A stretch of 64,000 nucleotides of DNA, taken from an uncultured Nitrospiraceae bacterium (GTDB taxonomy: Bacteria; Nitrospirota; Nitrospiria; Nitrospirales; Nitrospiraceae). The stretch is taken from the NCBI GenBank assembly GCA_963730935.1, contig CAVSTP010000004.1, positions 352,001-416,000 of the forward strand, given 5' to 3'. Numbering within the stretch: the first letter of the stretch is position 1; the number at the start of each line of letters is the position of its first letter. This document shows, piece after piece, positions 12,487-63,356 of this stretch. The position numbers and the translations under genes were made by a program. A model generated the notes under the pieces. That model saw only the letters and a list, made by a program, of their open reading frames with translations. It made no database searches and was not told the origin of the DNA.

Positions 12487-13064
12487 CGGATCGGCTCCGT
12501 CTGGCCCAGGTGTGCAAGCTGTTCTTTAAGCCGCTGCTTGGCATAGTACACGCGCGTCTTCACCGTATTGGTCGGGATGCCGAGCAAGGTGGAAATTTCC
12601 TCATAGGGTTGTTCCTCATAAAACACGAGCCGCAGGATTTCCCGGTGCTCTCTCGTCAGCGCGGCCATGGCCCGTTGTGTCAGCGTCGCAAGTTGATTGC
12701 GGAACACGCCTTCATCAGGACGATCATGCGGATGAGGAAGATCGACCGCGCCATCCAATGCGATTTCTCGCTGGCGGCGGCCCGAGCGTCTGATCGCGTC
12801 GAGAGCCTTGTGCCGGGCGATCCCGAATATCCAGGTGGATACCCGTGACGTGCAGGCGAACGAGCCGGCCCCCCGCCAGACGGCAAGCATGGTATCGTCT
12901 ACAACTTCTTCCGCCAACGATGCATCGGAAACGAGCGTCTGCACGTACTGATATACCCGTTTTTCGTAAGAGTGGTAGAGGCGCTCAAATGCTGGTCGAT
13001 CACCATGGGCCACCGCCGCAAGAAGATCATTCTCCGACGTGTCTTTGACGTGTGTCGCGTCCAT
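12483..13064 (-). CDS. ECF-family RNA polymerase sigma-70 factor
   Basis: GDRPAFERLY, AEEVVDDTMLAVW, STWIFGIARHKALD (region 2); YEEISTLLGIPTNTVKTRVYYAK (region 4). Confidence 0.93.
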   Translation of the reverse strand: MDATHVKDTSENDLLAAVAHGDRPAFERLYHSYEKRVYQYVQTLVSDASLAEEVVDDTMLAVWRGAGSFACTSRVSTWIFGIARHKALDAIRRSGRRQREIALDGAVDLPHPHDRPDEGVFRNQLATLTQRAMAALTREHREILRLVFYEEQPYEEISTLLGIPTNTVKTRVYYAKQRLKEQLAHLGQTEPIR

Positions 13065-13079
13065 CGGGGCCTGAGTTCA
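13054..13079 (-). promoter_or_regulatory. ECF-type promoter variant TGAACT-N16-CGAC overlapping the sigma start codon
   Basis: One mismatch to the motif repeated across the island; exact 16-nt spacer. Confidence 0.5.
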
Positions 13080-13187
13080 AGAGAATCGAGACCCTTGAGC
13101 GGCCTTGCTGTAGCACATTTTCGGGAACCCCTCAATAGACGACGTTGATTGACCGGCCGCCACGAGCGTTCTACAATGCCTTGTCGC

Positions 13188-13213
13188 TGAACCTTTTGCC
13201 GTGTTCTCCCGAC
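13188..13213 (+). promoter_or_regulatory. ECF-type promoter TGAACC-N16-CGAC
   Basis: Exact motif 28 nt upstream of the 13242 ORF. Confidence 0.7.
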
Positions 13214-13241
13214 GTACGGGACAGCACGGGAGGGCGAGATC

Positions 13242-14958
13242 ATGATCATCCTGGGTTCGCAGCGGAAGAAGGGGACGGTCAACGGGCAACCTCTTTTCCT
13301 GATCCTGCTCGGTCCGCTCGTGCTCAGCTCCTGTGCGGCAGCGCCATTCCTCATCCCGGTCGCCTTCGAATTTGCAAGAAATCTGTTTCAGACCGGCCTC
13401 TCCAACTACGGCTCCAAACATCGCGACAATTTGAGCAACCTGGTCAACCGGCTGTCGAGCCCGTACATGCAAGGTCTGCCGCCCATGCAGATCGGTGCCC
13501 CGGGCATGCCAGGGTTTGGTGCACCATCGGCCGTTCCCGGACAGCCTGGTTTTCCCGGACAGCCTGGTTTTCCCGGACAGCCTGGTTTTCCCGGACAGCC
13601 TGATTTGTCCGGACAGCCTGGTTTGTCTGGCCAACCCGGTTTACCTGGCCAACCCGGAGTGCCGCAAGGGTCCGTTCCGGTCCAACCGGGAATGATCAAT
13701 CCCAACAATCCGTACGGCACTGTTCAGCAGAATAACCCTGCTGTGACGCAGTATCCCGGCATGTCCACCATTCCCGGCAGTACGGTGACTCCCTATGGCA
13801 CTCCGCAAGGATATCCTTCCCAGCCTGGAATGAACCCGTACGACCCGAACAATCCATACGGGTCGGCGGCCATGAATCCGTATGGGCAAACTTCGAACCC
13901 GTATGGCCAGAATCCCTATGGGCAACCAGCTAACCCGTATGGAACACCATCCCCCTATGGGTCGCAGAATCCCTATGGCACATCGCCGCAGGGCGCGTAT
14001 GGTTCGAATCCCTATGGGCAGACGAACCCTTATGGCCAAGCGAATCCCTATGGCCAAACGAACCCTATGGCCGACGAATCCCTATGGACAAACGAACCCG
14101 TACGGCGCGACGAATCCGTATGGCAGCACGGCATACGATCCCAACAACCCCTACGGCAACAACCAAGCCCAGCCCGGGTATGGACAGGCTTACGGGCAGC
14201 CGCAAGCAGGCTACGGCACCACCTCTCCATACGGTATGCAACAGACTCAGCAACCCTACGGGGCTTACGGATCGACCCCGCAACCGTATGGGTCACAGCC
14301 GTATGGCGCGTCTCAGTACGGAGGACAGCAGCCCTATGGAGCGACAGGCATCTATCCGCGCGGACTTGGCGCCGAGCCGGTCGCGGTAGATGTCGCACTC
14401 GTGCGTCAAAAGCAGACTTCCAAAGGCAAAGAAGTCGTCCTCATGAATGACGGTGAGGTGCTGAAAGACGGCGGGGCCAATCCTGAAGCCGGTGATCGGT
14501 TCAAGATTGTCATTCGCCTGAACTGCGACTGTTACCTCTATATCATGTCCATCGATGGCTCCGGCTGGGCCGAACCGGTGTTCCCGAAAAAAGACGGCAA
14601 GACGGTCAATCCCGTCAAGAAGGATCAGGAATATGCCTTCCCCGAAGGAGCCCAATGGTTCACGTTGGACCAAATCAAGGGCATCGAGTCGTTCTTCGTC
14701 GTGGGGGCAGCCAATCGCCGGACCGACCTCGAAGAAAGCTTCACTCAGATCGGTGCGGAAAAGCGGCCGGATACGAAGATCGTCGCACGCGTGGAGGAGG
14801 CACCGGTCATCCCTCGGGGCGTGGCTTCGGTCACAACGCGTGGCATCCTGGCGGTCAAGGATGAAACCGGCACTTCGATCCAAGTGGCGCCTCTTTCCTA
14901 TTCGGCGGACCAAGCCGGACAAGATGTCACCGTGACTCGCTGGTTTAAGCATGAATGA
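13242..14958 (+). CDS. Lipoprotein with PGQPGF/NPYG low-complexity repeats and C-terminal DUF4384-like domain; frameshift near 14071
   Basis: Lipobox LSSC; ORFs 13242-14450 and 13882-14958 join if one A is restored in the repeat unit (tatggcc[a]gacgaat); C-terminal GDRFKIVIRLNCDCYLYIMSIDGSG..VFP. Confidence 0.75.
13536..13660 (+). repeat. Coding 18-nt tandem repeat (CCCGGACAGCCTGGTTTT; PGQPGF)
   Basis: Three near-perfect copies plus several degenerate ones, with no spacers. Confidence 0.9.
13700..14340 (+). repeat. Degenerate coding repeats (NPYG / QPYG)
   Basis: About 20 PYG-type units. Confidence 0.8.
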
Positions 14959-14970
14959 AAGGGCAGCACG

Positions 14971-15861
14971 ATGAAGCCACATCGTTGGTGCATCGTCGTC
15001 GGACTTAGCGCGGTTCTCGTGCATGGGGCCGGTCAGGCTCAAGTGTTCCCGCCCCGACAGCCCCAGCCCGCTCCTGCTCCACCGCCGGTTCCCCAAGGGC
15101 AAGCACCGAGTCCAGCTGCCATGCCGCAGCCGCCCGCAACGCAGCCGGGAAGTCTGACCAAGAGCATTCCTCTCGTCGCGATCTTGGGTGATCCCACGAA
15201 ATCGTTCATTCAACTGGGGAACATGCGAAGCCCGTTCGACTCAAATTTTTCGCTGGGCCGAGGACTTACGGGGCGTATCGCCTTGGAAAAATACACCTAC
15301 GAAGCCGGCAACGGACAGAAGGCTTTCGTGCACGTGACCGGGATGTCCAATCCGCCGATCGTGACCGTGGAAGGGCCGGAGGTCCGCTATCAATTCTTGT
15401 TTCCGACCATTCAATTCAAGACCTACTATAAGGACTATTCAGGGGAGGGCGATTCGGCGTTGAGCGATCTGGTGGCCGAAAAGGTCATGGTCGACGTGTT
15501 CCTCTCTCCGACCATCGATCAACGCCGTTTTCCGACGTACCATTCAATTCGTATCGCGATCACCGGAGGCGTCAAGGAAGCGGAGAAGTGCACGCATTTC
15601 TTCGACATTATCTTCCCGATCAACATCTGCAAGGTCGCCAATGAATACTTCCGTCAAGTTCAGCCCGCGCTCGAGAACGGCATGCGTGAAATTATGCTTC
15701 AGCCGCAGACGAGAATGCAGTTCGAGCAGCAAGTCGCCCAATATATCCGCGGGGACCTTCTGACCACTGCCGGCATCAACCCAATGAGCCCCGCCCAGGT
15801 CGAAATTCTGCAAGCGGAATTCCGAGGGGCGGACTACATCGCCAATTACCGGCCGCGCTAG
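14971..15861 (+). CDS. Exported hypothetical protein with Pro/Gln-rich N-terminus
   Basis: Signal peptide ending AGQA; follows the DUF4384 gene by 12 nt. Confidence 0.7.
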   Translation: MKPHRWCIVVGLSAVLVHGAGQAQVFPPRQPQPAPAPPPVPQGQAPSPAAMPQPPATQPGSLTKSIPLVAILGDPTKSFIQLGNMRSPFDSNFSLGRGLTGRIALEKYTYEAGNGQKAFVHVTGMSNPPIVTVEGPEVRYQFLFPTIQFKTYYKDYSGEGDSALSDLVAEKVMVDVFLSPTIDQRRFPTYHSIRIAITGGVKEAEKCTHFFDIIFPINICKVANEYFRQVQPALENGMREIMLQPQTRMQFEQQVAQYIRGDLLTTAGINPMSPAQVEILQAEFRGADYIANYRPR

Positions 15862-15991
15862 CTCCCTCTTCTCCCCCGGTCATTACAGGCTCGTTGTTCC
15901 CATAGATGAACCTTCTTAAGGGATCGGTGTGTGCTATACTGCCGCCTCTCTCGCGTCCTGTGCCATGCAACCGGTTTGCAAAGGCAGGCAC

Positions 15992-18900
15992 ATGATTCCA
16001 ACCGTCAGGCGTTCCGCCGTCTTATTCCTCCTTTTATGGCTCCCTGTCGCGTTATCCACCGGGTGTGGCTGGTATTACATGTTCTCCAGTCCATCGGTGC
16101 CTGAATATCGATCGCCGTCCGACGAAGACATCCAAAAAATGACCAACCGGATGATGGGCAAGGCGCCCAAACGGGAAGCGCCTCTGACCACAGACGGCGT
16201 GCAAGTCGTGTTTCAAACGGGGCACACCGCTACCATCCGCACGCTCGCCCTCAGCCCGAACGGCCGTTACATCGCGTCCTCGGCTGGTGACGCCACGGTG
16301 AAAATTTGGGACGTCGCCAGCGGGCAGGAAGTGCGGACGCTCACGGGCTACGGAATGCTGGGCGCCGATACGCTCGTCTTCAGCCCCGACAGTACCCGTC
16401 TCATTGCAACCGAAATGGGAGCCGGATTGAAAATGGTCGAAGTGAACACCGGCCGTGAAGTGCTCGCAGCCGGTGCCTTGATGGCCAGCGGGGCGGTGGT
16501 GAGCGCCGACGGACGATTTGCCGTCGCACAGCAGAGCGATGCGAAAGCGGCCGCTAGCCGCTTCCTGAATGTGCTGAATCAATCGCTTGCCGTCATCCAG
16601 CTCACGAGCGGTCAAAACGTCTGGACGCTTCCAGACTCGGAATCTCAAACGCCACTCGCACTCAGCGGTGACGGGAAAATCCTATTGACGAGCCGGCTGG
16701 ATACCAAGACGTCGACCTCGATCGGTTCGACGATTGGATCCATGTTCGGCTTTGGAACGCCGGATTTGCCGACCATACAGCAAGAGCTGCTGCTCTGGGA
16801 TGTGCCTGCGAAGAAACTCCGCAAGAGCTGGTCGGTTAAGAACATGGCCGAAGGGGCAGGCGGGAAAATCTCTCCGGATGGACGCTGGTTCCTTCGTGAA
16901 GACATGGCGACGCGACGGCTTATCCTGACGGACCTCGAGACGGGGAAACCAGTCCAGACGATCTCGACCGGTGCCAGCGCCACGAGCGGGATGACCAACA
17001 GTCTTGGATTCAGTCCCGATGGACGCCTGGCAACATTTTCTACGAGCGATGGCACGACCAGGCTCCTCGAAATTCCCAGTGGACGGCTACAGTCCACGCT
17101 CCACTCAACCGCCGTCGGCTTCAGCCAAGACGGCAAACAGCTCGTTTTGGCATTGGAAGGCGGAGGCGCGCCGTTCCTGCGCGACACCTCGAGCGGACAA
17201 GAAATTCGCCTGACAGGCGGCGGCAGCGGTATTACGGAACTTGCGGTGGGGCAACAGGGCCGCTTTCTCGTGGCCGCCATGGAAGGGGGCAGCGCCAAGT
17301 TGTGGGATCTGGCCACGGGTCAAATTCTTCGCACGTTCGAATGTCCAGGCGGGACGGGAGCGTCGTCGGTTGCCCTTGCCCAATCCTCGGCGTTGCTTGC
17401 GACCGGCTGCGCGGACGGGTCGGCTTGGTTGTGGGATGTCAACAGCGGCCGGCAACTTCAGAGTCTCTCAGCTGCGTTACCTTCCGGAGAATGGTTTCCT
17501 ACCACTGTGCGCTTGACGCAGGACGGTAGGAATGCAGTCGTCACAATGCGCGATCAGTTGGTGGTCTGGGATCTCTCGACAGCAAAGGAACAACGGCGAA
17601 TTGCGATTCCACGTGGCCAGCTTCCAAGATCGATGGACATGATCGGGAATCCGGAAGCTGGATACGAAGGACTTCCTGCGGAATATCGCACCAAGATGAA
17701 GGATCGGATGCCGGAGCAGCCGCAGATGGATCCCGCGATGATTGCGAAGATGAAGGAGACGTCGCATTGGATCCGAACGATTGCTCTGCATCCCAACGGA
17801 CAGATTGCCGCGGTAGGCCGTTCGTACGAAATCAGCCTCTGGGACCTGAAGGCCGGCGCTCTCCTGCGCCGGTTTCAGGACACCAGCAAACAGGAGGCGA
17901 TGGCGCGGCGACAAAAGCAGCAGGCGGAGCAACAGCGATATTTTGAAGAGGCCAGCAGCATGAAATCGTTGTTGCCGTTCGGCCTGGGCATGCCTTCCCG
18001 CCCTCCGGCTATGGACTCTGGTGAGATTGTGCAAATGGACGATCCGTCCGAGGTGATGGAGTTGATGGGAGATATGGGAGGTGAAATCAACGGGGGCACG
18101 AGTTTGGCTTTCAGCCCAGACGGTCGCCTGCTGCTCAGTGATGGGGTAAGGGGAAAAGATCTCTGGAATGTCGCCGATGGCCGTAAGATTCGTCCGCCGA
18201 AACCCCCGCGGGCATCCGGCTTCGATCCGATGAGGATGATGGCCAACATGGAGTTCAATATCGGGGGTTTGGGTGTCGCCTTCAGCCCCGATGGCCGGTT
18301 GGCTGCACGGGGTCACGGAGAAGTGATCAAGGTCTGGGATGTCGCCAGCGGACAAGATCGATTCGAATTGATCGGGCATACCGCCGCCGTAAAGACTCTT
18401 CAGTTCTCAGCGGATGGCCGCTCGTTGATCAGCGGCGGGAGTGACGGGGCCGTGCGCCTCTGGAATCTTCAGAGCGGAAAAGAACAAGCCGCCCTTATCG
18501 CGCTTGGCCGCGAGGACTTTGTGGCGGTGTTGCCGGACCAATACTATCGAGCCTCGAAAAGCCGCATCAAAGGCGTGTCGTTCCGCGTGAAGGAGCAGTT
18601 GTACCCCTTCGAGCAGTTCGATTTGCGGTTCAATCGTCCTGACATTGTGATGACTCGACTAGGGATGGTCTCACCGGACGTCGTACAAAGCTATCAACTT
18701 GCCTATGCACGGCGGCTGAACAAAATGGGGATGACGGAGCAGATGCTGGGCAGGGAGTTTCACCTGCCGGAACTGGAACTGCTGACGACGGATGTGCCGG
18801 TTTCTGTCGGCGCGCCGAGCTTGACGCTCCGCGTGAAGGCCATGGACAGCAAATACGCTTTGGATCGCTTGAATGTGTTCGTCAATGACGTGCCGGTATA

Positions 18901-19951
18901 CGGAACGGCCGGATTGTCGCTGGTCAGCAAACGGCTTCAAGCGCATGAACAAGACATCGAGGTTCCCCTGGTGTCGGGCCGCAACAAGATCCAGGTTTCC
19001 GTGCTCAATCAACAGGGCGTGGAATCATTGAAACAGACCGTCTATACGTCCTCCACCGCACAGTTGGCGCCTCCCGAAGTGTACGTCGTCGGAGTCGGGG
19101 TCAGCGAATACAAAGACAAAGCGTACAACCTTCGTTACGCCGCCAAAGACGCCAACGATCTTGTGGCCGCGTACAAGGCCCTCGAACAGCGGGAGGGAAT
19201 ATCGAGCCAGGTGCATGTGCTGAACCTGACGGATCAGAAAGCGACTAGGTCGGGCATCGTGCAGGCGAGGGAGTGGCTCAAAGCGTCCAAGGTGAACGAC
19301 CTGGTCGTGGTGTTCGCCGCCGGGCACGGGATGACCGACGAGAAGTCCGATTACTACTTTGGAACCTACGACATCGATCCCAAGCATCCGGCCGTCAACG
19401 GCTTGCCGTATCAGGAATTCGAAAATCTGCTGGACGGCATCCCGGCGCTCCAGAAAGTGTTGCTTCTTGATACCTGCTTCTCCGGCGAGATCGAAAAGGA
19501 CCAACCGGTCGTCGTCGCTCAGGCTGAAACAGGAGCCTCCGGCACGGTGAAGATGCGGGCATTCAAAGCCGCCAGAGGCGTGTCGGTCGTAGCCGATGAG
19601 CCGCAAGCCCCAACGGGCACCGCGACGAGCGGACCTCGATTGTCGAACGAAATGCTGCGTTTTCAGCAGGACTGGTTCGCCGACCTTCGGCGCGGCACCG
19701 GCGCCGCGATCATCTCAAGTTCGAGCGGCAACGAGTACAGCCTGGAAGGCGAGCAGTGGAAGAACGGCGTGTTCACGTATTCGCTGCTCAATGGGCTAAA
19801 GAATCACCAGGCCGATACGAATAAGGATCGAGTGATTACGGTCAGCGAGCTGCAGGCTTACGTGATCGACCAAGTCCGGAAGTTAACAGAAGGTGGCCAG
19901 AATCCAACCGTCCGACGGGAAAATTTGGAGAGCGATTTCGTCGTGTATTGA
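15992..19951 (+). CDS. Lipoprotein: WD40 beta-propellers plus C-terminal caspase-family (C14) domain
   Basis: Lipobox LSTGC; many GH...WD repeats; VFAAGHG and LLDTCFSG dyad; NGVFTYSLLNGL; ends GGQNP. Confidence 0.9.
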   Translation: MIPTVRRSAVLFLLLWLPVALSTGCGWYYMFSSPSVPEYRSPSDEDIQKMTNRMMGKAPKREAPLTTDGVQVVFQTGHTATIRTLALSPNGRYIASSAGDATVKIWDVASGQEVRTLTGYGMLGADTLVFSPDSTRLIATEMGAGLKMVEVNTGREVLAAGALMASGAVVSADGRFAVAQQSDAKAAASRFLNVLNQSLAVIQLTSGQNVWTLPDSESQTPLALSGDGKILLTSRLDTKTSTSIGSTIGSMFGFGTPDLPTIQQELLLWDVPAKKLRKSWSVKNMAEGAGGKISPDGRWFLREDMATRRLILTDLETGKPVQTISTGASATSGMTNSLGFSPDGRLATFSTSDGTTRLLEIPSGRLQSTLHSTAVGFSQDGKQLVLALEGGGAPFLRDTSSGQEIRLTGGGSGITELAVGQQGRFLVAAMEGGSAKLWDLATGQILRTFECPGGTGASSVALAQSSALLATGCADGSAWLWDVNSGRQLQSLSAALPSGEWFPTTVRLTQDGRNAVVTMRDQLVVWDLSTAKEQRRIAIPRGQLPRSMDMIGNPEAGYEGLPAEYRTKMKDRMPEQPQMDPAMIAKMKETSHWIRTIALHPNGQIAAVGRSYEISLWDLKAGALLRRFQDTSKQEAMARRQKQQAEQQRYFEEASSMKSLLPFGLGMPSRPPAMDSGEIVQMDDPSEVMELMGDMGGEINGGTSLAFSPDGRLLLSDGVRGKDLWNVADGRKIRPPKPPRASGFDPMRMMANMEFNIGGLGVAFSPDGRLAARGHGEVIKVWDVASGQDRFELIGHTAAVKTLQFSADGRSLISGGSDGAVRLWNLQSGKEQAALIALGREDFVAVLPDQYYRASKSRIKGVSFRVKEQLYPFEQFDLRFNRPDIVMTRLGMVSPDVVQSYQLAYARRLNKMGMTEQMLGREFHLPELELLTTDVPVSVGAPSLTLRVKAMDSKYALDRLNVFVNDVPVYGTAGLSLVSKRLQAHEQDIEVPLVSGRNKIQVSVLNQQGVESLKQTVYTSSTAQLAPPEVYVVGVGVSEYKDKAYNLRYAAKDANDLVAAYKALEQREGISSQVHVLNLTDQKATRSGIVQAREWLKASKVNDLVVVFAAGHGMTDEKSDYYFGTYDIDPKHPAVNGLPYQEFENLLDGIPALQKVLLLDTCFSGEIEKDQPVVVAQAETGASGTVKMRAFKAARGVSVVADEPQAPTGTATSGPRLSNEMLRFQQDWFADLRRGTGAAIISSSSGNEYSLEGEQWKNGVFTYSLLNGLKNHQADTNKDRVITVSELQAYVIDQVRKLTEGGQNPTVRRENLESDFVVY

Positions 19952-20003
19952 TGAAGGTCCGCAACTGTTCGGCAAGCAGCGTTCACACCACAAGGAGGGC
20001 AAC

Positions 20004-20078
20004 ATGACACGACTTTGGTCAGCTCTGATGGTGGTCGTTTGTATTCTCGCGAGTGTTGGCTGCAGTCCGATGCGTTGA
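20004..20078 (+). pseudogene. Short lipoprotein-signal remnant MTRLWSALMVVVCILASVGCSPMR
   Basis: AAGGAGGG RBS and lipobox-like SVGC, then a stop four codons later. Confidence 0.4.
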
Positions 20079-20246
20079 GGGATCGGAGCCGGGGTCAAAG
20101 TGACGGTGTGTACGTGAGCTGTAACAGCTGGGGGGCGGGGGTGTTTGCGCGTGACACCGGCATCAGGGCAAATGTCCCCTGCGTGATGAGCAGACCGTCC
20201 ACGACTGCTGCGCCTGGTCCGTAAAAATTTCGCTCTGAGGTGGGCA

Positions 20247-23200
20247 GTGCCAATCATCGTCGTAGTCTTGGTCGGAATGCTCAGTACGGGATGCTTCCTG
20301 TTCGCCGAAAAAGACATCGATAAGCGGGCCGGGAGAGCGCAGATTCAAAGCAGTGAATCGGCGAACGACGGAGTGCAAGTCGTGCTGCAAAAGGGGCACT
20401 CCGACATGATCAATGCCGTTGCCTTGAGCCAGAACGGCCGGCTGGTGCTGACCGGGAGTCAAGACGAGACAGCGCGATTGTGGGACGTGAGTAGCGGGCA
20501 AATGATCCGAAGTTTTGTCGGGTTCGCGTTACATGGTCCTCATCTTCTGGCCTTGGGCGCATCGGGGCAGGTAGTGATCGGGGATAGACACACAGTCAAA
20601 GTGTTTGAAGCGACCACCGGACAGGAGCTTCGATCCGTTCCGGTGCGGGACAGCGAACGGGCGGTGGCGAGTCCTGATGCGCGTGTGCTCGCGACCGCTG
20701 GTGGAACAGTGGCGACGACAATCCAGCTGTGGGATCTGACCACCGGCAAAGAGCTCTCACACGATCCGGCCGGAACATTCGCGATTCCACTGGTATTCAG
20801 TCCGGACGGGCGTCTCCTCGCGACGCAACGGCGGGTGGCCGGAGCCTACGGCGGTCTCACGATCTGGGACATGGCAGCCGGAAAGAAACCCAAAACCATC
20901 GATCATTCGTCGGAGGTCCGCGCTGCGGCGCTCAGTCCGGATGGACGGATGGTCGCGCTGCAATCGGCGGACCGCTCGATTGTCGTGAAAGAGGTGGAGA
21001 CGGGTCGAGTGCTCCATCACCTCGCCATGACCTTGTCCCCACAGACAGGTCGCACCACAGGATTCGAATTCAGCCGGGATAATCGGTTCCTGGCGACAGC
21101 GGATTCGGAAAACCTTGTGCGGTTGTGGGACCTTCAATCGGGGCAAGCGGCGAAAACATTCCGAGGCACAGCGGTGGATTTTGGGAATGACGGGAAAACC
21201 CTTGTCGTCGGCGTAATGGAAGGTGTGCCGCTGTTGCGTAATGTTGAAAGCGGAGCTGAGACGAAGTTTTCTTCAGGCGGAACCACCGGGATTGTCGATG
21301 TGGCCGTGTCAATGGATGGAAACAAAGTGCTGGTAGCCATGGAGGATGGCACGGTCAAGTTGTGGGATCTCGCGACGGGCCAGATCCTGCGTACGCTCGC
21401 AGGACCGGCGGAATCGTCCATCGCCATCAGCCGGATCGGCGGAATGCTCGCGACGGCCGGCGGCGGCGATGGCTCGGTGGCCGTCTGGGACTTCATGACA
21501 GGACGCAAGCGACTGACGGTACCGGCACCGAAGGGAGACGAGAAAGATGTCTCGGATCGCACAGTGGTGAGTCTGAGTTCGGACGGCGGTCTGTTGGCCG
21601 TGGCCATGAGGGATCAACTGTGTGTCTACGAGATCCCCAACGGCAAGGAACTTCACTGTCAGACCATGGGACGGTTTGGTGACACTATCGAAATGTTCGC
21701 GAATCCCTACAACTATGCTCAACAGGTCATGAAACACGGAAGCGAAAATATACGACGGAAACGTTGGATCAGGGCCCTGGCATTTAGTCCGGATGGTCAA
21801 TACCTGGCGGCGTCCATGGACTCAGGGATCTTTTTGCTAGTGGCGAAAACAGGAAAATTTGAACGCGATGTTGCCATTGCTGCATGGGGAGGAGCCACGA
21901 AAGAGGAGGACGAAGACCTCCAATCAATTGCCAGCACGTCCAACGTGCACAATCTTGCGTTCAGCAGCGACGGGGAACTTCTGGCGGGCGTCGGTCCGAA
22001 CTGGAGGGGGGTATGGGGAGATTTGCACCCTAGCAGCATGAAACTCGTCGGGCGCTTTTTGATGGGCATCGTGCCGGGTGTCAGTAGCGGACCGGCTGGC
22101 ATAGAGAAAAGCAGCGGTTCCAAGCGAGAGATCAACTATCGAGGATTGGCGTTAAGCCCTGACGGCAGTTTGGCGGTGCTGGGACATGGCCGGCTGGTCA
22201 AAATGTGGGACGTGGCGAATAACACTGATCTCAGGACACTCGTTGGGCACACGGCCAACGTCACTGCCGTCGGGATGACGCCCGATGGTCGGCTCGTTGT
22301 CAGCGGAAGCCAGGACGGGATGCTGAAGGTGTGGGACGTCAAGTCGGGCAGTGAGATCGTCTCACTGATGGCTTTGGGAAACGAGGACTATGTCGCGGTC
22401 ACTCCGGACCAGTACTACCGTGCATCCAAGACCCGCATGAAAGGGGTGGCCTTTCGAGTGAACGGACAACTCTATCCTTTCGAGCAATTTGATCTTCGTC
22501 TCAACCGTCCGGACATCGTCCTCAACCGCTTGCGGCGGGCAAGCGGCGACATCATCGAAAGTTACCGTCACGCTTACGAGCGGCGGCTGAAGAAGATGGG
22601 TCTGACAGAACAGATGCTCGGAACTGATTTTCATCTACCGGTTATCGAACTGCTCACGAAAGAGGTGCCGGTCTCGGTCAAGGCCTCGACGCTGACGGTG
22701 CGCGTGAAGGCCAGCGACAGCAAATACGCGCTCGATCGGTTCAATGTGTTTCTCAATGACGTGCCGGTCCATGGCACAGCCGGGCTGCCGCTCCCAAACA
22801 AGCAACTCCAGACGCAGGAGCAAGATATTCAGGTGCCGTTGGTGCCAGGCCGAAACAAAATTCAAATCTCTGTCCTGAACCAGCAAGGGGTCGAATCGCT
22901 CAAACAGACGCTCTACACCACCTCAACGGCTTCGGCGGCGCCGCCGGAAGTGTATGTCCTCGGGATCGGCGTAAGCGAATACAAAAACAAGGCCTACGAC
23001 CTTCGTTATGCGGCGAAGGACGCCGGCGATCTCATTGCCGCGTACAAAGCGCTCGAACAACGACAGGGATCGCCGACCAAAGTACACGTATTGACCCTGG
23101 CCAATCAAAAAGCCACGCGGACCGAAATAGTCAGCGCCAAAGAGTGGCTTAAGCGATCGATGATCAACGATCTGGTCGTCGTCTTTGCGGCCGGCCACGG

Positions 23201-23822
23201 CATGACCGACGAGAAGTCCAACTATTACTTCGGGACGCATGACATTGATCCGCAGCATCCGGAAACGAACGGGTTGCCCTACGAGGAATTTGAGAACCTC
23301 CTGGATGGCATCCCGGCGTTGCAGAAGCTGCTGCTTCTTGATACCTGCTTCTCGGGCGAGATCGAGAAGGATCAGACCATCGTCGTGGCAAAGGCCGAGA
23401 CTATGGGTAGCGGGGCGGTGAAGATGCGTGCCTTCAAAGCGGCTCGCGGTGTGTCGGTCGTCGCGGATGCGGAACAGACACCGAGCGGAACCGCAACCGT
23501 CACCCCAACATTGTCCACCGACATGGTGCGCTTTCAACAGGACTGGTTCGCCGATCTGCGACGCGGCACGGGCGCGGCAGTTATCTCCAGCTCGAGCGGC
23601 AATGAGTATAGCCTTGAAGGCGAGCAGTGGAAAAACGGCGTGTTTACCTATTCGTTATTGAACGGTTTGAGGAACCGCGGAGCCGATGTCAATCATGACC
23701 AAACGATCACCGTGAGTGAACTGCAGGCGTATGTCACTGAGCAAGTACGAAAGCTGACCGAAGGGGGACAGAATCCGACGGTCCGGCGGGAAAATCTGGA
23801 GTACGACTTTGCGGTGTACTGA
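20247..23822 (+). CDS. Second WD40-repeat plus caspase-family (C14) lipoprotein, paralog of 15992-19951
   Basis: Lipobox LSTGC; WD repeats; same VFAAGHG / LLDTCFSG dyad; C-terminal region very similar to the upstream gene. Confidence 0.9.
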   Translation: MPIIVVVLVGMLSTGCFLFAEKDIDKRAGRAQIQSSESANDGVQVVLQKGHSDMINAVALSQNGRLVLTGSQDETARLWDVSSGQMIRSFVGFALHGPHLLALGASGQVVIGDRHTVKVFEATTGQELRSVPVRDSERAVASPDARVLATAGGTVATTIQLWDLTTGKELSHDPAGTFAIPLVFSPDGRLLATQRRVAGAYGGLTIWDMAAGKKPKTIDHSSEVRAAALSPDGRMVALQSADRSIVVKEVETGRVLHHLAMTLSPQTGRTTGFEFSRDNRFLATADSENLVRLWDLQSGQAAKTFRGTAVDFGNDGKTLVVGVMEGVPLLRNVESGAETKFSSGGTTGIVDVAVSMDGNKVLVAMEDGTVKLWDLATGQILRTLAGPAESSIAISRIGGMLATAGGGDGSVAVWDFMTGRKRLTVPAPKGDEKDVSDRTVVSLSSDGGLLAVAMRDQLCVYEIPNGKELHCQTMGRFGDTIEMFANPYNYAQQVMKHGSENIRRKRWIRALAFSPDGQYLAASMDSGIFLLVAKTGKFERDVAIAAWGGATKEEDEDLQSIASTSNVHNLAFSSDGELLAGVGPNWRGVWGDLHPSSMKLVGRFLMGIVPGVSSGPAGIEKSSGSKREINYRGLALSPDGSLAVLGHGRLVKMWDVANNTDLRTLVGHTANVTAVGMTPDGRLVVSGSQDGMLKVWDVKSGSEIVSLMALGNEDYVAVTPDQYYRASKTRMKGVAFRVNGQLYPFEQFDLRLNRPDIVLNRLRRASGDIIESYRHAYERRLKKMGLTEQMLGTDFHLPVIELLTKEVPVSVKASTLTVRVKASDSKYALDRFNVFLNDVPVHGTAGLPLPNKQLQTQEQDIQVPLVPGRNKIQISVLNQQGVESLKQTLYTTSTASAAPPEVYVLGIGVSEYKNKAYDLRYAAKDAGDLIAAYKALEQRQGSPTKVHVLTLANQKATRTEIVSAKEWLKRSMINDLVVVFAAGHGMTDEKSNYYFGTHDIDPQHPETNGLPYEEFENLLDGIPALQKLLLLDTCFSGEIEKDQTIVVAKAETMGSGAVKMRAFKAARGVSVVADAEQTPSGTATVTPTLSTDMVRFQQDWFADLRRGTGAAVISSSSGNEYSLEGEQWKNGVFTYSLLNGLRNRGADVNHDQTITVSELQAYVTEQVRKLTEGGQNPTVRRENLEYDFAVY

Positions 23823-23831: not shown

Positions 23832-23857
23832 TGAACCTTGGGAGGAGGATAGACGAC
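23832..23857 (+). promoter_or_regulatory. ECF-type promoter TGAACC-N16-CGAC
   Basis: Exact motif upstream of the 23986 ORF. Confidence 0.7.
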
Positions 23858-23985
23858 AGACTCTTGAGAGGGAAGCCAATAAGGGAACGGACCGGTTGAG
23901 TACAGGTGACGCCGATCGATATGTAGGGAGATCACGAAACTCGTCTGCGCCTCAGCTGTGCACTCGCTGACGAAAGGAGATCCAG

Positions 23986-25060: not shown

Positions 25061-25086
25061 TGAACCATTCAACGATGAGGGACGAC
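25061..25086 (+). promoter_or_regulatory. ECF-type promoter TGAACC-N16-CGAC
   Basis: Exact motif 23 nt upstream of ATG 25110. Confidence 0.7.
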
Positions 25087-25109
25087 ACACGAACAAGAGA
25101 GGACGAATC

Positions 25110-29123: not shown

Positions 29124-29149
29124 TGAACCTTTTTTGGGATCAATTCGAC
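29124..29149 (+). promoter_or_regulatory. ECF-type promoter TGAACC-N16-CGAC
   Basis: Exact motif upstream of ATG 29197. Confidence 0.7.
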
Positions 29150-29196
29150 ACAGAATGCATCAACTGGCCAGACCGGTGTCCGAAAGGAGAGGCTGT

Positions 29197-46370: not shown

Positions 46371-46454
46371 AAGAACCTCCTTCTTCGAGACACATAAGAA
46401 CGATTTGTCAGCGTCAGATTCACACCGTGTGATGAAGCTGACCAGCAAGAGCAC

Positions 46455-47045: not shown

Positions 47046-47237
47046 GATGATCCTCCTTCATCGAAAGGTTGCAGCGTGACGCATCTCTCTCGCTGTGGCA
47101 ACTCACTTACCTTCAAGCTCGTGCATTTGATCTGCCAATCCTCAACCTCGATCAGAATTGATCCAACGTCATCAGCGTGCCGATGATGCGGTAGTTAATG
47201 CGCCCTTTGCACCCACGGTATCGACCTGTGACTTCAC

Positions 47238-48467: not shown

Positions 48468-48584
48468 GGGAAGTCCCTCCCTCAAAGGCAGCGCCTCATT
48501 TCTCAGGATCACTTGTTCACCAAAGGTTCCTGGAACATTTCTATTTTCCATCACATGGTCCATCTGCTCGGAATGAGAAAATAC

Positions 48585-49583
48585 TCAGAGCAGGGTGAGC
48601 ACGATCCGATAGGTGACTCTCGCTTTACAAAATTTGTCGTAATCTTCATACACGATATAGTTGAAATCTTTGATCGGTGGTGGAGTGAGCTTTTTGGTCA
48701 ACGTGATCCCATTAGGTGTAAATTGACCTATAGGATCTTTCTCGTTGAACCTCATGCCAGGCTCGAACAAATTTGCGAGGCCAATATTGCGAGCGGACCA
48801 TCCGAACTCCGCGATTTCTCGCGTCTGTCCGCCACTTAGCTTAAACTCTTTCATATGATCTCGTCCGTCAGGTGAGGCCCAATATAAATGGATGTCACTT
48901 TTTCCCACCGTATCGCAGTCGGCATACAAAAAGAATTTGAGAGGTGTGACAGTGACATTGAACCTCGGTGTCATGGTGAATTGAGTACTAAACGTGAAGG
49001 ACTTCCCGTTCGGAATGAGTTCCCGAAGGGCGATATCGAGGCGCATGAGCCTGGACAGCCCGTCTCTCAAGTCATCCGCGTACCGAACTTGTATACCGGT
49101 CGTGGGTTTGTAGGTCTCTGTCAGGCGCTGTCCGGAGGTGCTGTAGGCGACGCTGATCTCGACCGGAACTGTGAGGGCTGGATTTTCGGGCACTCGGAGG
49201 TCGACCGTGTTGGTTGCGGGGAAGGATACCTGAATCGCGTTGGCGACGAAATTGAGGGTGGGCGTGGGAGCAGTGTAACTCGGGAGACGGATGAAGCTGC
49301 CTCCCTGGATCGCTCCCGACGAGAGCTTCGGCGGTAGTAGTCCCCGTTCCTGAATGTCGCCAGCCTCCGCCGACGGAGCGGGCTCTTCGGGTATCGTAGC
49401 CGCCGCACCAGGCGATGCCGGTTCCTGAGCACCGGTTGCTGTGCCGATCTCAACCCCGGTGCCAGTGGCGGATGGACTTTCGAGCGTCGGCTGATCCGCC
49501 AGCAACCGCGGAACGAGCGGCACGCTCACAAGACCACCGGTCAACAGCGCGATTGTTAGTATGGAGATCGTGATCGATCGCAT
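48585..49583 (-). CDS. Exported hypothetical protein (family with 49632 and 58140 copies)
   Basis: GGAGGGAG RBS; signal peptide; acidic Pro-rich segment ending GDIQERG. Confidence 0.75.
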   Translation of the reverse strand: MRSITISILTIALLTGGLVSVPLVPRLLADQPTLESPSATGTGVEIGTATGAQEPASPGAAATIPEEPAPSAEAGDIQERGLLPPKLSSGAIQGGSFIRLPSYTAPTPTLNFVANAIQVSFPATNTVDLRVPENPALTVPVEISVAYSTSGQRLTETYKPTTGIQVRYADDLRDGLSRLMRLDIALRELIPNGKSFTFSTQFTMTPRFNVTVTPLKFFLYADCDTVGKSDIHLYWASPDGRDHMKEFKLSGGQTREIAEFGWSARNIGLANLFEPGMRFNEKDPIGQFTPNGITLTKKLTPPPIKDFNYIVYEDYDKFCKARVTYRIVLTLL

Positions 49584-49631
49584 GGTGTTCTCCCTCCGCA
49601 CGAATCGGCGCGCCGCCATCTCAACCGCCGC

Positions 49632-50663
49632 TCAGAATTGATCAAACGGCATCAGTGCGCGGATGATCGTGTATGTAATCTCCGCCTGACACCCCCCGCC
49701 GGATTTGCTTGGCTGCCCGGGCGGCCCTGCCGTCTCCTCCTTCAAGAAAAAATGATGTTTGGTAGTCGGTCCCGGCACCAACGGTCTGCCTGACCTACCG
49801 AGAGGGGGGGTGTATTCCCCGAAGTCACGCTCGTCAAAGAACACAGACGGTTCCTGGAGTTTGTCCCGCGTAGTGATCTCCTTGCGGGTCCAAGAAAATT
49901 GTGTGATCCCTTTTGCCTCGCCCTGACCGAGTTTGAACTTTTGCTCATGGAATTGACCATCAGGCGAATGCCACTTGAAGGTGATGTCACCTTTCCCAAC
50001 GGTATCGCATCGGTTAACCATGACGAATCTCAAATCCGTGACAAAGACGTCATAGAGCGGGGTGATCGTGAACTCCTTGTTGATCCCGAATCCTTGCCCA
50101 TTGGGGACCAGTTCCCTCACAGTAATAACGAGCTTCATCGGCCGTGGGTCCCCGTTCCCTTCAGCGTCGCGGTACGAGAGGGTCAGGCCGCTGGTGGAAC
50201 TATAGGTTCCTTTCTGGATCTGTGATCGGAACGGAGAGCTATAGAAGACTTCGACCTCGACGGGCACTGTCACCGGCAGGTTCGGGGGAATGCGGAGGTT
50301 CACGGAGATGCTCTTCGACGTGATCCGCATCGCGTTTCGGATCGCGCTTAAACTTAGTGTCGGCGCGCTAAATTGAGTTGGTGAGTTAGGTTGAAGGTTG
50401 GGCGCCACTTGCCCAGGCAGGACCCCCCGTTCCTGAATGTCGCCAGCCTCCGCCGACGGAGCGGGCTCTTCGGGTATCGCGGTAGGCGCACCAGGCGATG
50501 CCGGTTCTTGCGCGCCAACCGCTGTGCCGACCTCGTCTCCGGTGCCGGTGGATGGGGTACTCAGGACCGGCGGCTCGTCAGCCAGCGCCCATGTTACCTG
50601 CGGCACACCCAACAGACCGCCGGTCAGCAGAAGCGTTGCTATGGACATAGTGATCGATCGCAT
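49632..50663 (-). CDS. Exported hypothetical protein, paralog of 48585-49583
   Basis: Start MRSITMS after GAGGAG; near-identical IPEEPAPSAEAGDIQERG; shared RELxPNG and CDTVGK..I...W.SPDG. Confidence 0.75.
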   Translation of the reverse strand: MRSITMSIATLLLTGGLLGVPQVTWALADEPPVLSTPSTGTGDEVGTAVGAQEPASPGAPTAIPEEPAPSAEAGDIQERGVLPGQVAPNLQPNSPTQFSAPTLSLSAIRNAMRITSKSISVNLRIPPNLPVTVPVEVEVFYSSPFRSQIQKGTYSSTSGLTLSYRDAEGNGDPRPMKLVITVRELVPNGQGFGINKEFTITPLYDVFVTDLRFVMVNRCDTVGKGDITFKWHSPDGQFHEQKFKLGQGEAKGITQFSWTRKEITTRDKLQEPSVFFDERDFGEYTPPLGRSGRPLVPGPTTKHHFFLKEETAGPPGQPSKSGGGCQAEITYTIIRALMPFDQF

Positions 50664-50760
50664 GATGGTCTCCTCTGCCTGGGGATACCAAACGGTTCCT
50701 CGAACCGATAGGCCTTGGAACACTCCGAAACCAGTTCCGTGCTGAGCACAACTCCGAGTA

Positions 50761-51171
50761 TCACTTGCCTTCCTTTTCTGAAGGTGTCGACTCCTCGCCT
50801 TCGACGCCACGGCGCTGGATTGGATTATCTGCACCCGCCTTTGGCGTCTGGCTGGTCCTTGGCTGCAGCTGCGGCAGGTTGTTCGATGGCTTGATGGCCG
50901 CCGGCCCCGATGTGCAAGTGCAGACATAGGTGCCGCTCGGGTTGGGATTGCAGTGAATTTGATAACGTTGGTCGCAGCCGCTTCTGCATTTCGCGTCGGA
51001 CGGAGGGCAGCTCTGAATGCATGCGTTGTGCAGACCTTCGCACTTCTTGATCTCAGCATCGTTGTTTGGCACCGCGGCAACTTCCAAACTCGTCGCCATG
51101 ACGAAGCCAATGCACAACATCAAACACCACACGGCCAGCGTGACTCTACCCAGCGAACATCTGTTTTTCAT
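50761..51171 (-). CDS. Small exported Cys-rich protein with RRGVEGE...SEKEGK tail
   Basis: GGAGG RBS; signal peptide; 8 Cys in the mature part. Confidence 0.7.
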   Translation of the reverse strand: MKNRCSLGRVTLAVWCLMLCIGFVMATSLEVAAVPNNDAEIKKCEGLHNACIQSCPPSDAKCRSGCDQRYQIHCNPNPSGTYVCTCTSGPAAIKPSNNLPQLQPRTSQTPKAGADNPIQRRGVEGEESTPSEKEGK

Positions 51172-51246
51172 CACGAACCTCCCGGTAGTTGTGGGTGGAC
51201 CATCTGCAGTCAGAACAGTATCTTCCAATCGTCCCTCTGTAATGAG

Positions 51247-51365
51247 TCACGGTTTCTTCTCCGTCTCCGCCGAAGGAATTTCCTCTTCGGCTGGCCGGTC
51301 TTCCACGCCCCGGCGCATGACTGGAGCGTTCATGTCACTTGCCTTCCTTCTCTGAGGATGTCGGC
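51247..51365 (-). pseudogene. Orphan C-terminal tail fragments
   Basis: Mini-ORF 51333-51247 MNAPVMRRGVEDRPAEEEIPSAETEKKP*, directly preceded by ...QTPTSSEKEGK* (stop at 51335-51337). Confidence 0.6.
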
Positions 51366-51416
51366 GTCTGCCATCGGACCCTTATCGCCTTGCGGTGGAT
51401 CGTTTCTGTGGAGTCT

Positions 51417-51442
51417 GTCGACGGGATGAGAGAAAGGGTTCA
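51417..51442 (-). promoter_or_regulatory. ECF-type promoter TGAACC-N16-CGAC
   Basis: Exact motif heading the minus-strand gene run below 51.4 kb. Confidence 0.7.
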
Positions 51443-54464: not shown

Positions 54465-54532
54465 GGCAAGAAAACCTTCCTCCCGGACCAGTCAAGCTAT
54501 GGCCGGGCTCCAGAACAATGGCCTATCAGTGG

Positions 54533-54558
54533 GTCGTCCGAACGCTCGAAGAGGTTCA
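54533..54558 (-). promoter_or_regulatory. ECF-type promoter TGAACC-N16-CGAC
   Basis: Exact motif upstream of the 54464 start. Confidence 0.7.
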
Positions 54559-61229: not shown

Positions 61230-61450
61230 GTCTGTCGCCCTGTGTCTTTCAAAGGTTCATGCCAAAAATTGAAGATTCCCGATGCCGTTATGAACCTATT
61301 GGCAGCGCCTCATGACATACAGGATGAGAGGACATTCAGTCCTCCCAGTTCAAAGGAGGCACACCATGTGGATCATCGCCATCGTTTTCCTCCCGCTCAT
61401 CGTCATAGCCCTCACTTCACTTCTGTGCGAGACCTTGGAAAGGGAGTAGG
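61230..61450. repeat. Copy 1 of a roughly 220-bp element: back-to-back ECF-type promoters, hairpin, RBS and small ORF
   Basis: Similar to 63136-63356; minus-strand TGAACC-N16-CGAC at 61234-61259, plus-strand TGAACC-N16-TGAC at 61291-61316. Confidence 0.85.
61366..61449 (+). CDS. 27-aa single-TM peptide MWIIAIVFLPLIVIALTSLLCETLERE
   Basis: AAAGGAGG RBS; conserved in the second copy with mostly conservative changes. Confidence 0.65.
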   Translation: MWIIAIVFLPLIVIALTSLLCETLERE

Positions 61451-61502
61451 GAGTGCCGACCACTCCTAATTCCCCATCCAATGGGTCGCACCGGGGCTCG
61501 CC

Positions 61503-62467
61503 TCACCGAATCCCTGGCGGAAACACGACACCGATCGATGCTTGCCCCCCCGCAGCTTGACCTAACGGGACAATTTGACCGGCCGGACCGGCCTGACGGA
61601 TTTGCGTGCTCATCTGTTGGATGACGTTTTCGAATTCCAGGCTGAACTCCGTCGTAAACGTTTGGCAGGTAATGATCACGCAGCCGACAAAGCTACCCTT
61701 TTCATGCTTGCAGTCGGGATCATAAGGACAGGCGTCGTCAGCGTTACGGGTCCCATCGCCATCGCAATCTCCGTCCGGCCCTTTATCCTGGCAATTGTCC
61801 CTCGTTGTCTTTTGCTGTTGTTCGTTCTTGTGGTTCTGCCACCAGGCCGCTATCCAGTTCCAGGCATCTTGGAAAAAGCCCCAAACGGTAAACACGTTAG
61901 TCCCGAAAGGCTGTGGGCCGGCCAATCGAGTCCGGAGCACGTACACGAAGCGCATCCAGTCCCACCATGCGCATGACATCTGCTCTCGGTATCTGAATGA
62001 CATCGGCGAACTGATTCGGCGTAAACACCATCGCGACATCCGTTCTGCCCGCTATTACGGAATCGAGAGTTTGAAGACCGCCGGGCGTGTTCCGCAGCGT
62101 ATTTGCGAGAGATGCGCGCACGGGAGCCTGCGAGTACACGACGGATATATCAACGGGGGTGATCCAATACCCGTTGACGAATGCAATCGGTGGGATGGTG
62201 CGTAGTTGGCGGCGAATCTCGCGCGTCGACCGCGCTGCGTACAACCGGCTGGTTCAGGGCGGCACGGTACGCCGACATGACCTGAGGTGATGGTGGGGGA
62301 ACTCGAGAAGTGCCGGAGGGACGACCTGGAAATTGCGGCACCGCCCGCTCTTCGATGCCTCCTTGCTTCGAGGTGTCGTCCGCCTGCACAAATGTGGCTT
62401 CCATATTGAACATCACTAAGCCACAAATGAAGAAGCCTGCCCAACGAACACTGTCGACCGTATTCAT
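61503..62467 (-). pseudogene. Exported protein split over three frames, with thrombospondin type-3-like Ca-binding motif
   Basis: Signal peptide and GIEERAVP (62150-62467); middle part in 61897-62244; DCDGDGTRNADDACPYDP in 61503-62039. Confidence 0.55.
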
Positions 62468-62523
62468 AATCGCCCTCCAGTCATCCGCGTGTCTCCCCCG
62501 TGCATTGCCGTAGCGGCCGCCGC

Positions 62524-63084
62524 TTAGTGCGGACCCAACACCTTTCTGATCTTATTGTTGGCGCTATTGAGTTCTGCACAATTGTTGGGAGGGTTGCAAA
62601 TGATAGTGACTTCGACAATGACTGTCTCTGCCGCGGTAAACTTTGGGTCGACTTTGAATTTCTTCGATTGATCGGGCGCGAGCGGAGCCACAGTTCGCTG
62701 ATCCCTGATCGTGCAATTGTTGTTCGCAATGCACTGGCTTGGATTGGGCGGTGTGCTCAGAGGGTTGTACCGCATACCTAACGTCAGAACCTGTACGGAT
62801 GGCATCGGCACGTTACCCTTGTTTACGATCTTGATCTCCGCCTTGTACTGGGCATGCAAGACATCGAGCCATTCTTGATCGATGGAGGCTGTCACATCCG
62901 GCAGAGGGAAGTGTTGTGGAACAGGCAGGCCTCTTTTCTCAACCTGTCCCTCTTGGCTGTTCGGTTCGGTGTTGGCCGGTTGGTCTTGAGCTAACAGAGA
63001 AGCAGTCGTCCAGCACGGAAATACTGCTAGCGCACACAGTGAGAGTATCAACGATAGCCTGCTCCACCGCGGGGCTAGGTGCAT
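62524..63084 (-). CDS. Exported CARDB-like Ig-fold protein
   Basis: AAGGAG RBS; signal peptide; GQVEKRG; LPDV...IVNKGN...LAPDQS...ELNSANN. Confidence 0.7.
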   Translation of the reverse strand: MHLAPRWSRLSLILSLCALAVFPCWTTASLLAQDQPANTEPNSQEGQVEKRGLPVPQHFPLPDVTASIDQEWLDVLHAQYKAEIKIVNKGNVPMPSVQVLTLGMRYNPLSTPPNPSQCIANNNCTIRDQRTVAPLAPDQSKKFKVDPKFTAAETVIVEVTIICNPPNNCAELNSANNKIRKVLGPH

Positions 63085-63135
63085 GTCGGTCTCTCCTTAT
63101 CCTTAGGAGCTTCGTCAGGTGGAATCTTTTGGTAC

Positions 63136-63356
63136 GTCTGTCGTCCTGTATCCTTCAAAGGTTCATGCCCAAAAATCGAAGGGATCATACACCTGCATGA
63201 ACCTTTGAGTGGCGCCTCGTGACCTACCGACGAGAGGACATTCAGTCCTCCCCGGCTCAAAGGAGGCAGATCATGTGGGTCATCGCCATCGTTTTCGTCC
63301 CGCTCATCCTCATCGCCGTCAGCTCGCTGGTGTGCGAGTCCTGGGAGTGAGAGTAG
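63136..63356. repeat. Copy 2 of the bidirectional promoter / small ORF element
   Basis: Minus-strand TGAACC-N16-CGAC at 63140-63165, plus-strand TGAACC-N16-TGAC at 63198-63223. Confidence 0.85.
63273..63350 (+). CDS. 25-aa single-TM peptide MWVIAIVFVPLILIAVSSLVCESWE
   Basis: AAAGGAGG RBS; paralog of 61366-61449. Confidence 0.65.
   Translation: MWVIAIVFVPLILIAVSSLVCESWE

Follow-up and report, generated by a model that had tools for sequence, protein, structure and literature searches.

The 64,000-nt window analysed here, positions 352001–416000 of contig C4 in the genome of an uncultured Nitrospiraceae bacterium (window coordinates are used throughout; numbers prefixed C4 or C3 are contig positions), contains repeated copies of the sequence TGAACC-N16-YGAC. 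Judged by its bases the motif is a promoter of the ECF33 type, a known kind, and with high probability it is read by a sigma factor of the extracytoplasmic function (ECF) class, encoded at 12483–13064. In all likelihood this sigma factor would initiate transcription at about base 34 of each site, thereby driving caspase genes, about 40 mostly exported proteins of the window and a few loci elsewhere.

An exact pattern search recovered all ten copies given in the preliminary description, with their positions and strands, and added an eleventh at 11829 (minus). One hundred dinucleotide shuffles of the window yielded a mean of 0.32 matches and a maximum of three, against 11 in the real sequence. 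When spacers of 10–23 nt were scanned, 16 nt was the sole peak in the window (11 sites; 0–3 at the 13 other spacings). The remaining 3.98 Mb of the genome showed no spacer peak (27 matches at 16 nt, 13–27 at other spacings), giving an expectation of 0.43 spacer-16 matches per 64 kb. The pairs 61259/61291 and 63165/63198 belong to two copies of a single cassette (79.6% identity over 225 nt), so nine independent sites remain (Poisson p ~1e-9). With one mismatch allowed, 20 matches were found and 9.98 expected, which places the single-mismatch class at chance level. The ten sites first described lie outside real genes, with a start codon 16–121 nt downstream of the predicted +1. Their description as intergenic and facing genes is upheld as to position, but 61291 and 63198 face tiny open reading frames (ORFs), and what comes first ahead of 51442 is a 28-codon remnant. 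The array had been called an island; no compositional island was found in the window (GC 0.54–0.60 from 8 kb onward, contig 0.574), nor was a tRNA boundary found within it, and the island is functional, not compositional. In locus L001 a tRNA-Arg gene lies at 19909–19985 (+), about 11.5 kb past the last site of the cluster.

TGAACC is present in 11 of 11 window sites, and T occupies motif positions 7–9 in 8, 8 and 9 of them. In ten of the 11, YGAC is followed by NN-AC (background 4.7%). This extension was noticed post hoc and was therefore tested on 39 loci of other genomes (L022–L060, out of 79 retrieved loci), where NNAC follows 58 of 69 matches with a 16-nt spacer, 30 of 40 with a 15-nt spacer and 4 of 51 with spacers of 13, 14, 17, 18 or 19 nt. 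Its presence at both spacings indicates a lineage spacer of 15 or 16 nt; the invariant 16-nt spacer first described holds in the window, as the sole enriched spacing, but not in the relatives. The full motif is YGAACC, 15–16 nt, YGAC-NN-AC, read as a -35/-10 pair.

A position weight matrix (PWM) trained solely on L022–L060 was then applied to the organism's own genome. Its 15 best matches comprise the 11 window sites and C4:420363, 526971, 801610 and 1626900, and at 20 bits it gave 14 matches in the real sequence and two in the reversed one, so the genome scan proposed earlier supports the motif. Three of the four additional sites are directed at genes whose products are probably exported; weaker candidates occur at C4:826889 (12.9 bits) and, with a 15-nt spacer, at C3:21351; a regulon limited to the island was not borne out. 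Of two near matches reported before, that at 13079 (TGAACT-N16-CGACACAC) proved conserved, and that at 43081 was rejected (two mismatches, no NNAC extension, below 12 bits). The -35-only copy at 15907 stands: ahead of the orthologous gene, L022 and L040 have retained a complete motif with a 15-nt spacer. Site 15907 is apparently a decayed one that, as read by eye, lost its spacer and -10 by a short deletion.

The assignment to an ECF promoter agrees with a tested promoter and a published consensus, as given in the available parts of the two sources. Pecf33_375 contains CGAACC-N16-CGACCAAC; ECF33_375 and ECF33_423 raise its activity 141- and 210-fold, and the others among 80/88 columns less than 3-fold (Rhodius 2013, PMC3817407). 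In the numbering of that paper +1 falls on base 34, counted from the first base of the -35. For ECF33, Casas-Pastor (2021, PMC7826278) gives a -35 of TGAACCTTT, a -10 that is variable but retains an AC, an anti-sigma factor of the zinc-finger, single-pass type at +1, a subtilase at +2 in subgroups s2 and s3, and a range listed as 100% Proteobacteria. The window shares with these the -35 TGAACC(TTT), the 16-nt spacer, the -10 CGAC-NN-AC of the tested promoter, a +1 zinc-finger anti-sigma factor with one membrane helix (hydropathy and structural model) and a protease gene at +2. It differs in that the +2 gene encodes a C14 metacaspase in 32 of 39 loci rather than a subtilase, with a correspondingly different linker motif in the anti-sigma factor; in that the closest named relatives of the window are Nitrospira and Nitrospiraceae; and in that the regulon is large and mostly clustered. 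As for self-regulation, the only same-strand site by the sigma gene covers its ATG.

The sigma factor itself is best matched in NCBIfam by PRK12515 (165 bits, cut-off 236). A plasmid-encoded sigma factor, L101, passes this cut-off (266 bits) and has the same motif upstream; comparing L101 with ECF33_375 by eye as a proxy, we infer that ECF33 is represented by PRK12515. In a quick tree with 56 rows (48 of 81 loci, L073 being dropped for a stop codon, plus the eight ECF-like proteins of the genome) the Nitrospira sigma factors and one from Steroidobacteraceae formed a group at 97%, which the tree did not place relative to L101. Given the score below cut-off and this tree, the protein is called ECF33-like, not an ECF33 member. 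ECF17 (SigL of Mycobacterium tuberculosis, SigU) shares the -35 TGAACC and a zinc anti-sigma factor whose N-terminal domain is similar (RslA), but its -10 is CGT (Pecf17_up1691, TGAACC-N16-CGTG, in the material available), and identity with ECF17 was ruled out on the -10 YGAC-NN-AC. ECF25, which has a Nitrospirae subgroup, was rejected on unlikeness to Pecf25_up4311 (GGAACT ... CGTCTAG), the sole ECF25 promoter compared. The EcfQ regulon, in the part of its report consulted, yielded its authors no motif and is not used as support. The supplements of Todor 2020 contained no TGAACC or Nitrospira match and those of Meier 2024 no TGAACC match; a 2026 bioRxiv preprint, in its accessible part, employs ECF33/Pecf33 as a synthetic switch.

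The local sigma factor is very probably the cognate of the motif, as the preliminary description had assumed. Among 150 genomes of the family, 24 encode an orthologue (E <=1e-30). The extended motif, counted at spacer 16 only and in genomes many of which are incomplete, averages 5.1 copies (range 2–9) in these 24 and 0.8 (0–3) in the 126 others, with a reversed-pattern control of 0.7 in both sets; at least four copies are present in 17/24 and 0/126, respectively, and two of the genomes lacking the sigma factor (G053 and G076) have no site at all. In all eight genera holding both kinds of genome the mean is higher where the sigma factor is present. A site is also kept, under a loose pattern, at three positions around the sigma gene: divergent from it (36/39 loci), over its start codon (37/39) and at the anti-sigma stop codon (34/37). 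The Steroidobacteraceae genome G154 (locus L059) encodes the same sigma factor together with an Arg-type anti-sigma factor and a caspase, and has seven motif copies against two in the control.

Caspase-domain genes lie downstream of sites three times in the window and twice just beyond it, together five of the nine in the genome. The other predicted targets include DsbA-like, trypsin-like, two Hcp-like, VgrG-like and tail-tube-like proteins and many without a Pfam match; most begin with a hydrophobic stretch, as seen by eye and by hydropathy.

The anti-sigma factor encoded next to the sigma factor has a zf-HC2 domain (Pfam). Its AlphaFold model has a hydrophobic helix at residues 113–132 and a predicted local distance difference test score (pLDDT) below 50 at residues 137–147. 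The N-terminal domain resembles RslA (Z 6.9, root-mean-square deviation 3.6, 60 aligned residues). The C-terminal fold matches many ferredoxin-like domains, subtilisin propeptides among them, at tied Z scores of 7–8.4, and has no Foldseek match at E <=0.001, so no function is drawn for this domain. An arginine motif, V/I-x-x-R-S/G/A, lies in the low-confidence loop between the membrane helix and the small folded domain and was found in 35 of 36 anti-sigma factors of the caspase clade, the exception looking frameshifted; the Arg persists although the rest of the linker varies. The seven anti-sigma homologues outside this clade lack it (0/7) and have [YF]-x-x-[LV]-S/G/A instead, five of the seven adjoining an S8 peptidase. 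Relatives of the anti-sigma factor number 5,310; by our own patterns, the best 150 representatives of the family comprise 74 of the Arg type, 28 of the other type, one with both and 47 with neither.

The caspase accompanies the sigma factor in 22 of its 24 genomes and occurs in four others, all four fragmented. It is closest to yeast metacaspase (E 1.7e-26), and alignment to 4f6o shows that the His/Cys dyad and the acidic pocket residues are kept. Metacaspases cleave after Arg or Lys (PMC13304501, as far as available). The protein shares with yeast Mca1 and plant MC4 and MC9 the C14 fold and the dyad, with acidic residues as in yeast, and differs in being bacterial, probably exported and equipped with DUF4384; its Arg specificity is a prediction. 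The nearest arrangement described is DdvS/DdvA of Myxococcus xanthus (PMC11506125, seen in part), which likewise combines an ECF sigma factor, a zinc single-pass anti-sigma factor, a periplasmic caspase-family domain proposed as first cutter and a clustered island. In DdvA, however, a CHAT domain is fused to the anti-sigma factor and cleavage is proposed only, where here a separate C14 protease is accompanied by a common Arg motif; unlike in the DdvS island, no CRISPR or CBASS genes were found in a Pfam scan of the window. A 2012 survey reported many metacaspases in Nitrospirae (PMC3501461, in the part available), and no account of this sigma/caspase module was found in the literature covered, from which most subscription papers and the bioRxiv supplements were absent. 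The exchange of the subtilase for a C14 protease with a shared Arg tag, a reading towards which we lean, would go beyond known ECF33 systems, as would the site over the sigma start codon. The caspase/Arg-motif clade is single, so that the swap of protease and motif counts as one event, not many.

In the mechanism suggested by these sequences, a membrane anti-sigma factor would hold the sigma factor until an exported Arg-specific metacaspase cleaves the anti-sigma factor on the C-terminal side of Arg144, in the outer linker. Proteases of this family would also mature themselves and trim exported proteins that bear the Arg tag. The caspases being targets of the sigma factor, a positive loop would result. 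On balance we favour this combination of release at Arg144, self-maturation, target trimming and positive loop. Either Arg pattern (V/I-x-S/T/E/G-R-G/A/S or x-x-R-G-V-E) occurs in 23 of 46 ORFs, compared with 6.9 in shuffled sequences, and matches number 1.97 per 1000 aa in the array and 0.46 elsewhere, figures that overstate the case since the pattern was drawn from these very proteins. As a held-out check, back-translated D/E-V/I-Q-E-R-G/A was searched in the 150 genomes: 17 of 42 matches fall within 60 kb of the sigma gene, where about 1.4 are expected (13 of 24 sigma genomes, positions listed). Genome-wide counts of this motif are noisy and only position near the sigma gene is informative.

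A competing account, possible though doubtful, accepts the promoter and assigns the Arg motifs to paralogous low-complexity linkers or to another protease, the anti-sigma factor being released by zinc loss or another signal. It accords with the zinc finger, with several targets being paralogues with similar tails, and with a pattern defined post hoc and noisy genome-wide. It fits less well with the occurrence of the motif in unrelated proteins (anti-sigma factor, caspase linker, trypsin-like and TIG-domain proteins), with retention of the Arg in an otherwise varying linker, and with the clustering of the back-translated matches near sigma genes in 13 other genomes.

The site at 13079 has a particular position. 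Its -35 lies exactly 15 nt before the sigma ATG in 37 of 39 loci and its -10 falls in codons 3–5. Codon 3 is N-C-G in 37 of 37, coding for Ala, Thr, Ser or Pro; the G belonged to the search pattern and the C did not. A fixed N-C-G despite differing residues points to constraint at the DNA level. At its sixth position the -35 has C in 1/37 here, against 35/36 at the divergent site and 29/34 at the anti-sigma stop codon. No further ECF site was found upstream of it at the sigma gene. As the ATG lies inside the spacer, this is not an ordinary autoregulatory promoter: with a predicted +1 near 13046, past the ATG, the transcript would carry the anti-sigma factor and the caspase, not full-length sigma factor. 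The sigma gene would be transcribed from a sigma70-like promoter, and damping of the loop may come from the weakened site, either as a weak promoter for anti-sigma factor and caspase only or by blocking read-through, a proposal we hold to be evenly balanced between right and wrong. The rseA P3 promoter of Escherichia coli (PMC8595263, available part) is similar in being a sigma-dependent promoter within the sigma gene (rpoE) that yields anti-sigma factor without sigma factor. It differs in lying about 230 nt before rseA, beside a positive autoregulatory promoter; the site here sits on the start codon itself, its -35 is weakened, and it lacks a further ECF site upstream.

True positive autoregulation, with a shorter active sigma factor made from a downstream start, is unlikely. 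It has been argued for EcfF of Bradyrhizobium, whose start codon was re-annotated downstream, the transcription start overlapping the annotated ATG (PMC3420878, consulted in part). In 22 of 37 orthologues one of the first three in-frame starts is a GTG at codon 18, which would allow such a shortened product from the self site here. Yet 37 of 39 loci have the ATG at this place in the spacer, with variable bases around it, indels after the ATG keep the frame (L040, L054), no downstream start is common to all orthologues, and none has a ribosome-binding site in this genome.

It is very improbable that the sites serve another ECF sigma factor of the genome, the local one being merely a target. Seven more ECF-like proteins are encoded, and the local sigma gene is without a plain autoregulatory site upstream of its ATG. 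The motif is absent, however, from the 250 nt upstream of each of the seven genes, and motif counts track the local sigma factor within genera (it alone was profiled across genomes). Among the eight ECF-like proteins the local one is also nearest to the PRK12515 member (135 bits, the others <=92) and alone has in common with it the recognition helix N-T-V-K-T-R. Least probable of all is a regulator operator or duplicated repeat instead of a promoter: two site pairs are a recent duplicate and sigma70-like promoters adjoin two sites, but the motif is asymmetric and oriented towards downstream starts, both boxes persist between unrelated spacer sequences, and it matches the promoter activated by ECF33 sigma factors (PMC3817407, available part).

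Several points weigh against the picture as a whole. The PWM comes near background under 18 bits (53 real and 44 control matches at 12 bits), and the outside site C4:1626900 sits inside a gene on the opposite strand. The sigma factor scores below the PRK12515 cut-off, and the quick tree gives it no placement relative to that family. The genomes compared are related and not independent of one another, and the caspase and Arg motif form one clade. The back-translated motif is absent in five of the 24 sigma genomes and present in six copies in one without the sigma factor, and the frequent GTG at codon 18 makes a shortened sigma factor from the self site conceivable. Promoter use, sigma binding and cleavage are all deduced from sequence. 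Of RNA, one metatranscriptome (share 0.06) provided six contig pieces, two of them near-identical; such contigs cannot show transcription starts.

Taken together, and tentatively, the module may be an ECF33-derived switch in which the subtilase was swapped for an exported Arg-specific metacaspase, with a V/I-x-x-R-G/S/A tag on the anti-sigma factor, the caspase and dozens of exported proteins, including tube and spike proteins that have export signals and no accompanying sheath or baseplate, and with a brake at the start codon. The coordinates of its elements are listed in Table 1.

Table 1. Promoter sites and genes of the predicted sigma regulon in the 64-kb window.
Feature	Position	Strand	Basis or remark
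Metacaspase-like C14 protease with DUF4384	9488..11764	-	Likely start 11764; N-terminal hydrophobic stretch; His/Cys dyad
Caspase linker motif I-x-x-R-S-I	11198-11215	-	Within the 9488..11764 gene
Promoter site 11, absent from the preliminary description	11800..11829	-	Begins at anti-sigma stop codon, faces caspase; 34/37 loci
Zinc-finger anti-sigma factor	11827..12486	-	ZAS domain/zf-HC2, hydrophobic helix (113-132), then a flexible linker and, at the C-terminus, a ferredoxin-like domain
Motif V-x-x-R-S-V (Arg144) of the anti-sigma linker, candidate for cleavage	12049..12066	-	Cleavage predicted
Proposed cognate: ECF33-like ECF sigma factor of 193 aa	12483..13064	-	Pfam sigma70 r2 + r4; motif co-occurrence
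Weakened site straddling sigma ATG (13064)	13050..13079	-	Predicted +1 ~13046, inside sigma gene; 37/39 loci
Putative sigma70-like promoter TTGAGG-N17-TACAGC, extended TG	13107..13135	-	Upstream of sigma gene; -10-like part in 35/37 loci
Putative sigma70-like promoter TTGACC-N17-TACAAT	13149..13177	+	Just before site 13188; -10-like hexamer in 36/36 loci
Promoter site facing ATG 13242	13188..13217	+	Top PWM score 33.9; 36/39 loci
DUF4384 lipoprotein-like gene (frameshifted) and 296-aa exported protein	13242..15861	+	One ORF in relatives
Decayed site, -35 only	15907..15912	+	Full motif in L022/L040, spacer 15
Two proteins with WD40 repeats and a C-terminal caspase domain each (His/Cys retained)	15929..23822	+	
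Promoter site facing ATG 23986	23832..23861	+	Exact match
Promoter site facing ATG 25110	25061..25090	+	Exact match
Promoter site ending NN-AG, facing ATG 29197	29124..29153	+	Exact match
Probable operon of exported proteins including Hcp-like and VgrG-like genes	29197..36483	+	Same strand, short gaps
Series of genes for exported proteins (Hcp-like, tail-tube gp19-like, trypsin-like, many with Arg motif)	36505..51333	-	Downstream of 51442; single transcript putative
Promoter site facing 28-codon remnant (51333) and ATG 51171	51413..51442	-	Exact match
Promoter site facing ATG 54464, lipoprotein-like	54529..54558	-	Exact match
Promoter site facing DsbA-like gene, ATG 61190	61230..61259	-	Cassette copy 1
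Promoter site facing 27-codon hydrophobic ORF 61366-61449	61291..61320	+	Cassette copy 1
Promoter site facing ATG 63084	63136..63165	-	Cassette copy 2
Promoter site facing 25-codon hydrophobic ORF 63273-63350	63198..63227	+	Cassette copy 2

The DUF4384 gene is frameshifted in a repeat region (13242–14958, +) and is clearly a single ORF in six of seven relatives; this is an assembly error or a real break. The Hcp-like, VgrG-like, tail-tube-like and spike-tip-like genes (32741–33355, 34396–36483, 36505–37077, 41995–43017 and 40821–41630) carry apparent export signals, that of the tail-tube gene being twin-arginine-like. A type VI secretion or other contractile injection system was considered and rejected: sheath and baseplate families (VipB, Phage_sheath_1, TssF, Baseplate_J) were not found in this 99.9% complete genome.

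Three paralogous exported proteins are encoded at 48585–51110 and 58624–59226 (minus), the one at 58624 being about 140 aa shorter than that at 48585 and apparently truncated. Remnants of shared C-terminal tails occur at 51247–51420 (minus), where the 28-codon ORF is almost a tail alone, which suggests that genes turn over within the array. Also encoded inside it are a GT2 glycosyltransferase and, with no Pfam match, a multi-pass membrane protein (51665–52366 and 54745–56436, minus). The duplicated, putative hydrophobic ORFs of 27 and 25 codons have strong ribosome-binding sites; the query used gave no match to them among the 150 related genomes, and the back-to-back site pairs of L028 and L041 face other sequences. 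Outside the array, an AMP-binding enzyme gene in at least two pieces (7247–8842, +) follows an acyl-CoA/methylcitrate-type cluster (1–7272).

As a promoter of known type, the motif provides a well-supported annotation and defines a regulon of about 40 mostly unannotated exported proteins in relatives of nitrite oxidisers. Few natural substrates are known for bacterial caspase homologues, and the regulon offers a candidate protease, a candidate bond (Arg144) and many candidate substrates; the site over the start codon would be a compact feedback design. If the full proposal is true, these bacteria would have a complete protease-addressed secretome under one sigma factor, with natural substrates for a bacterial caspase.

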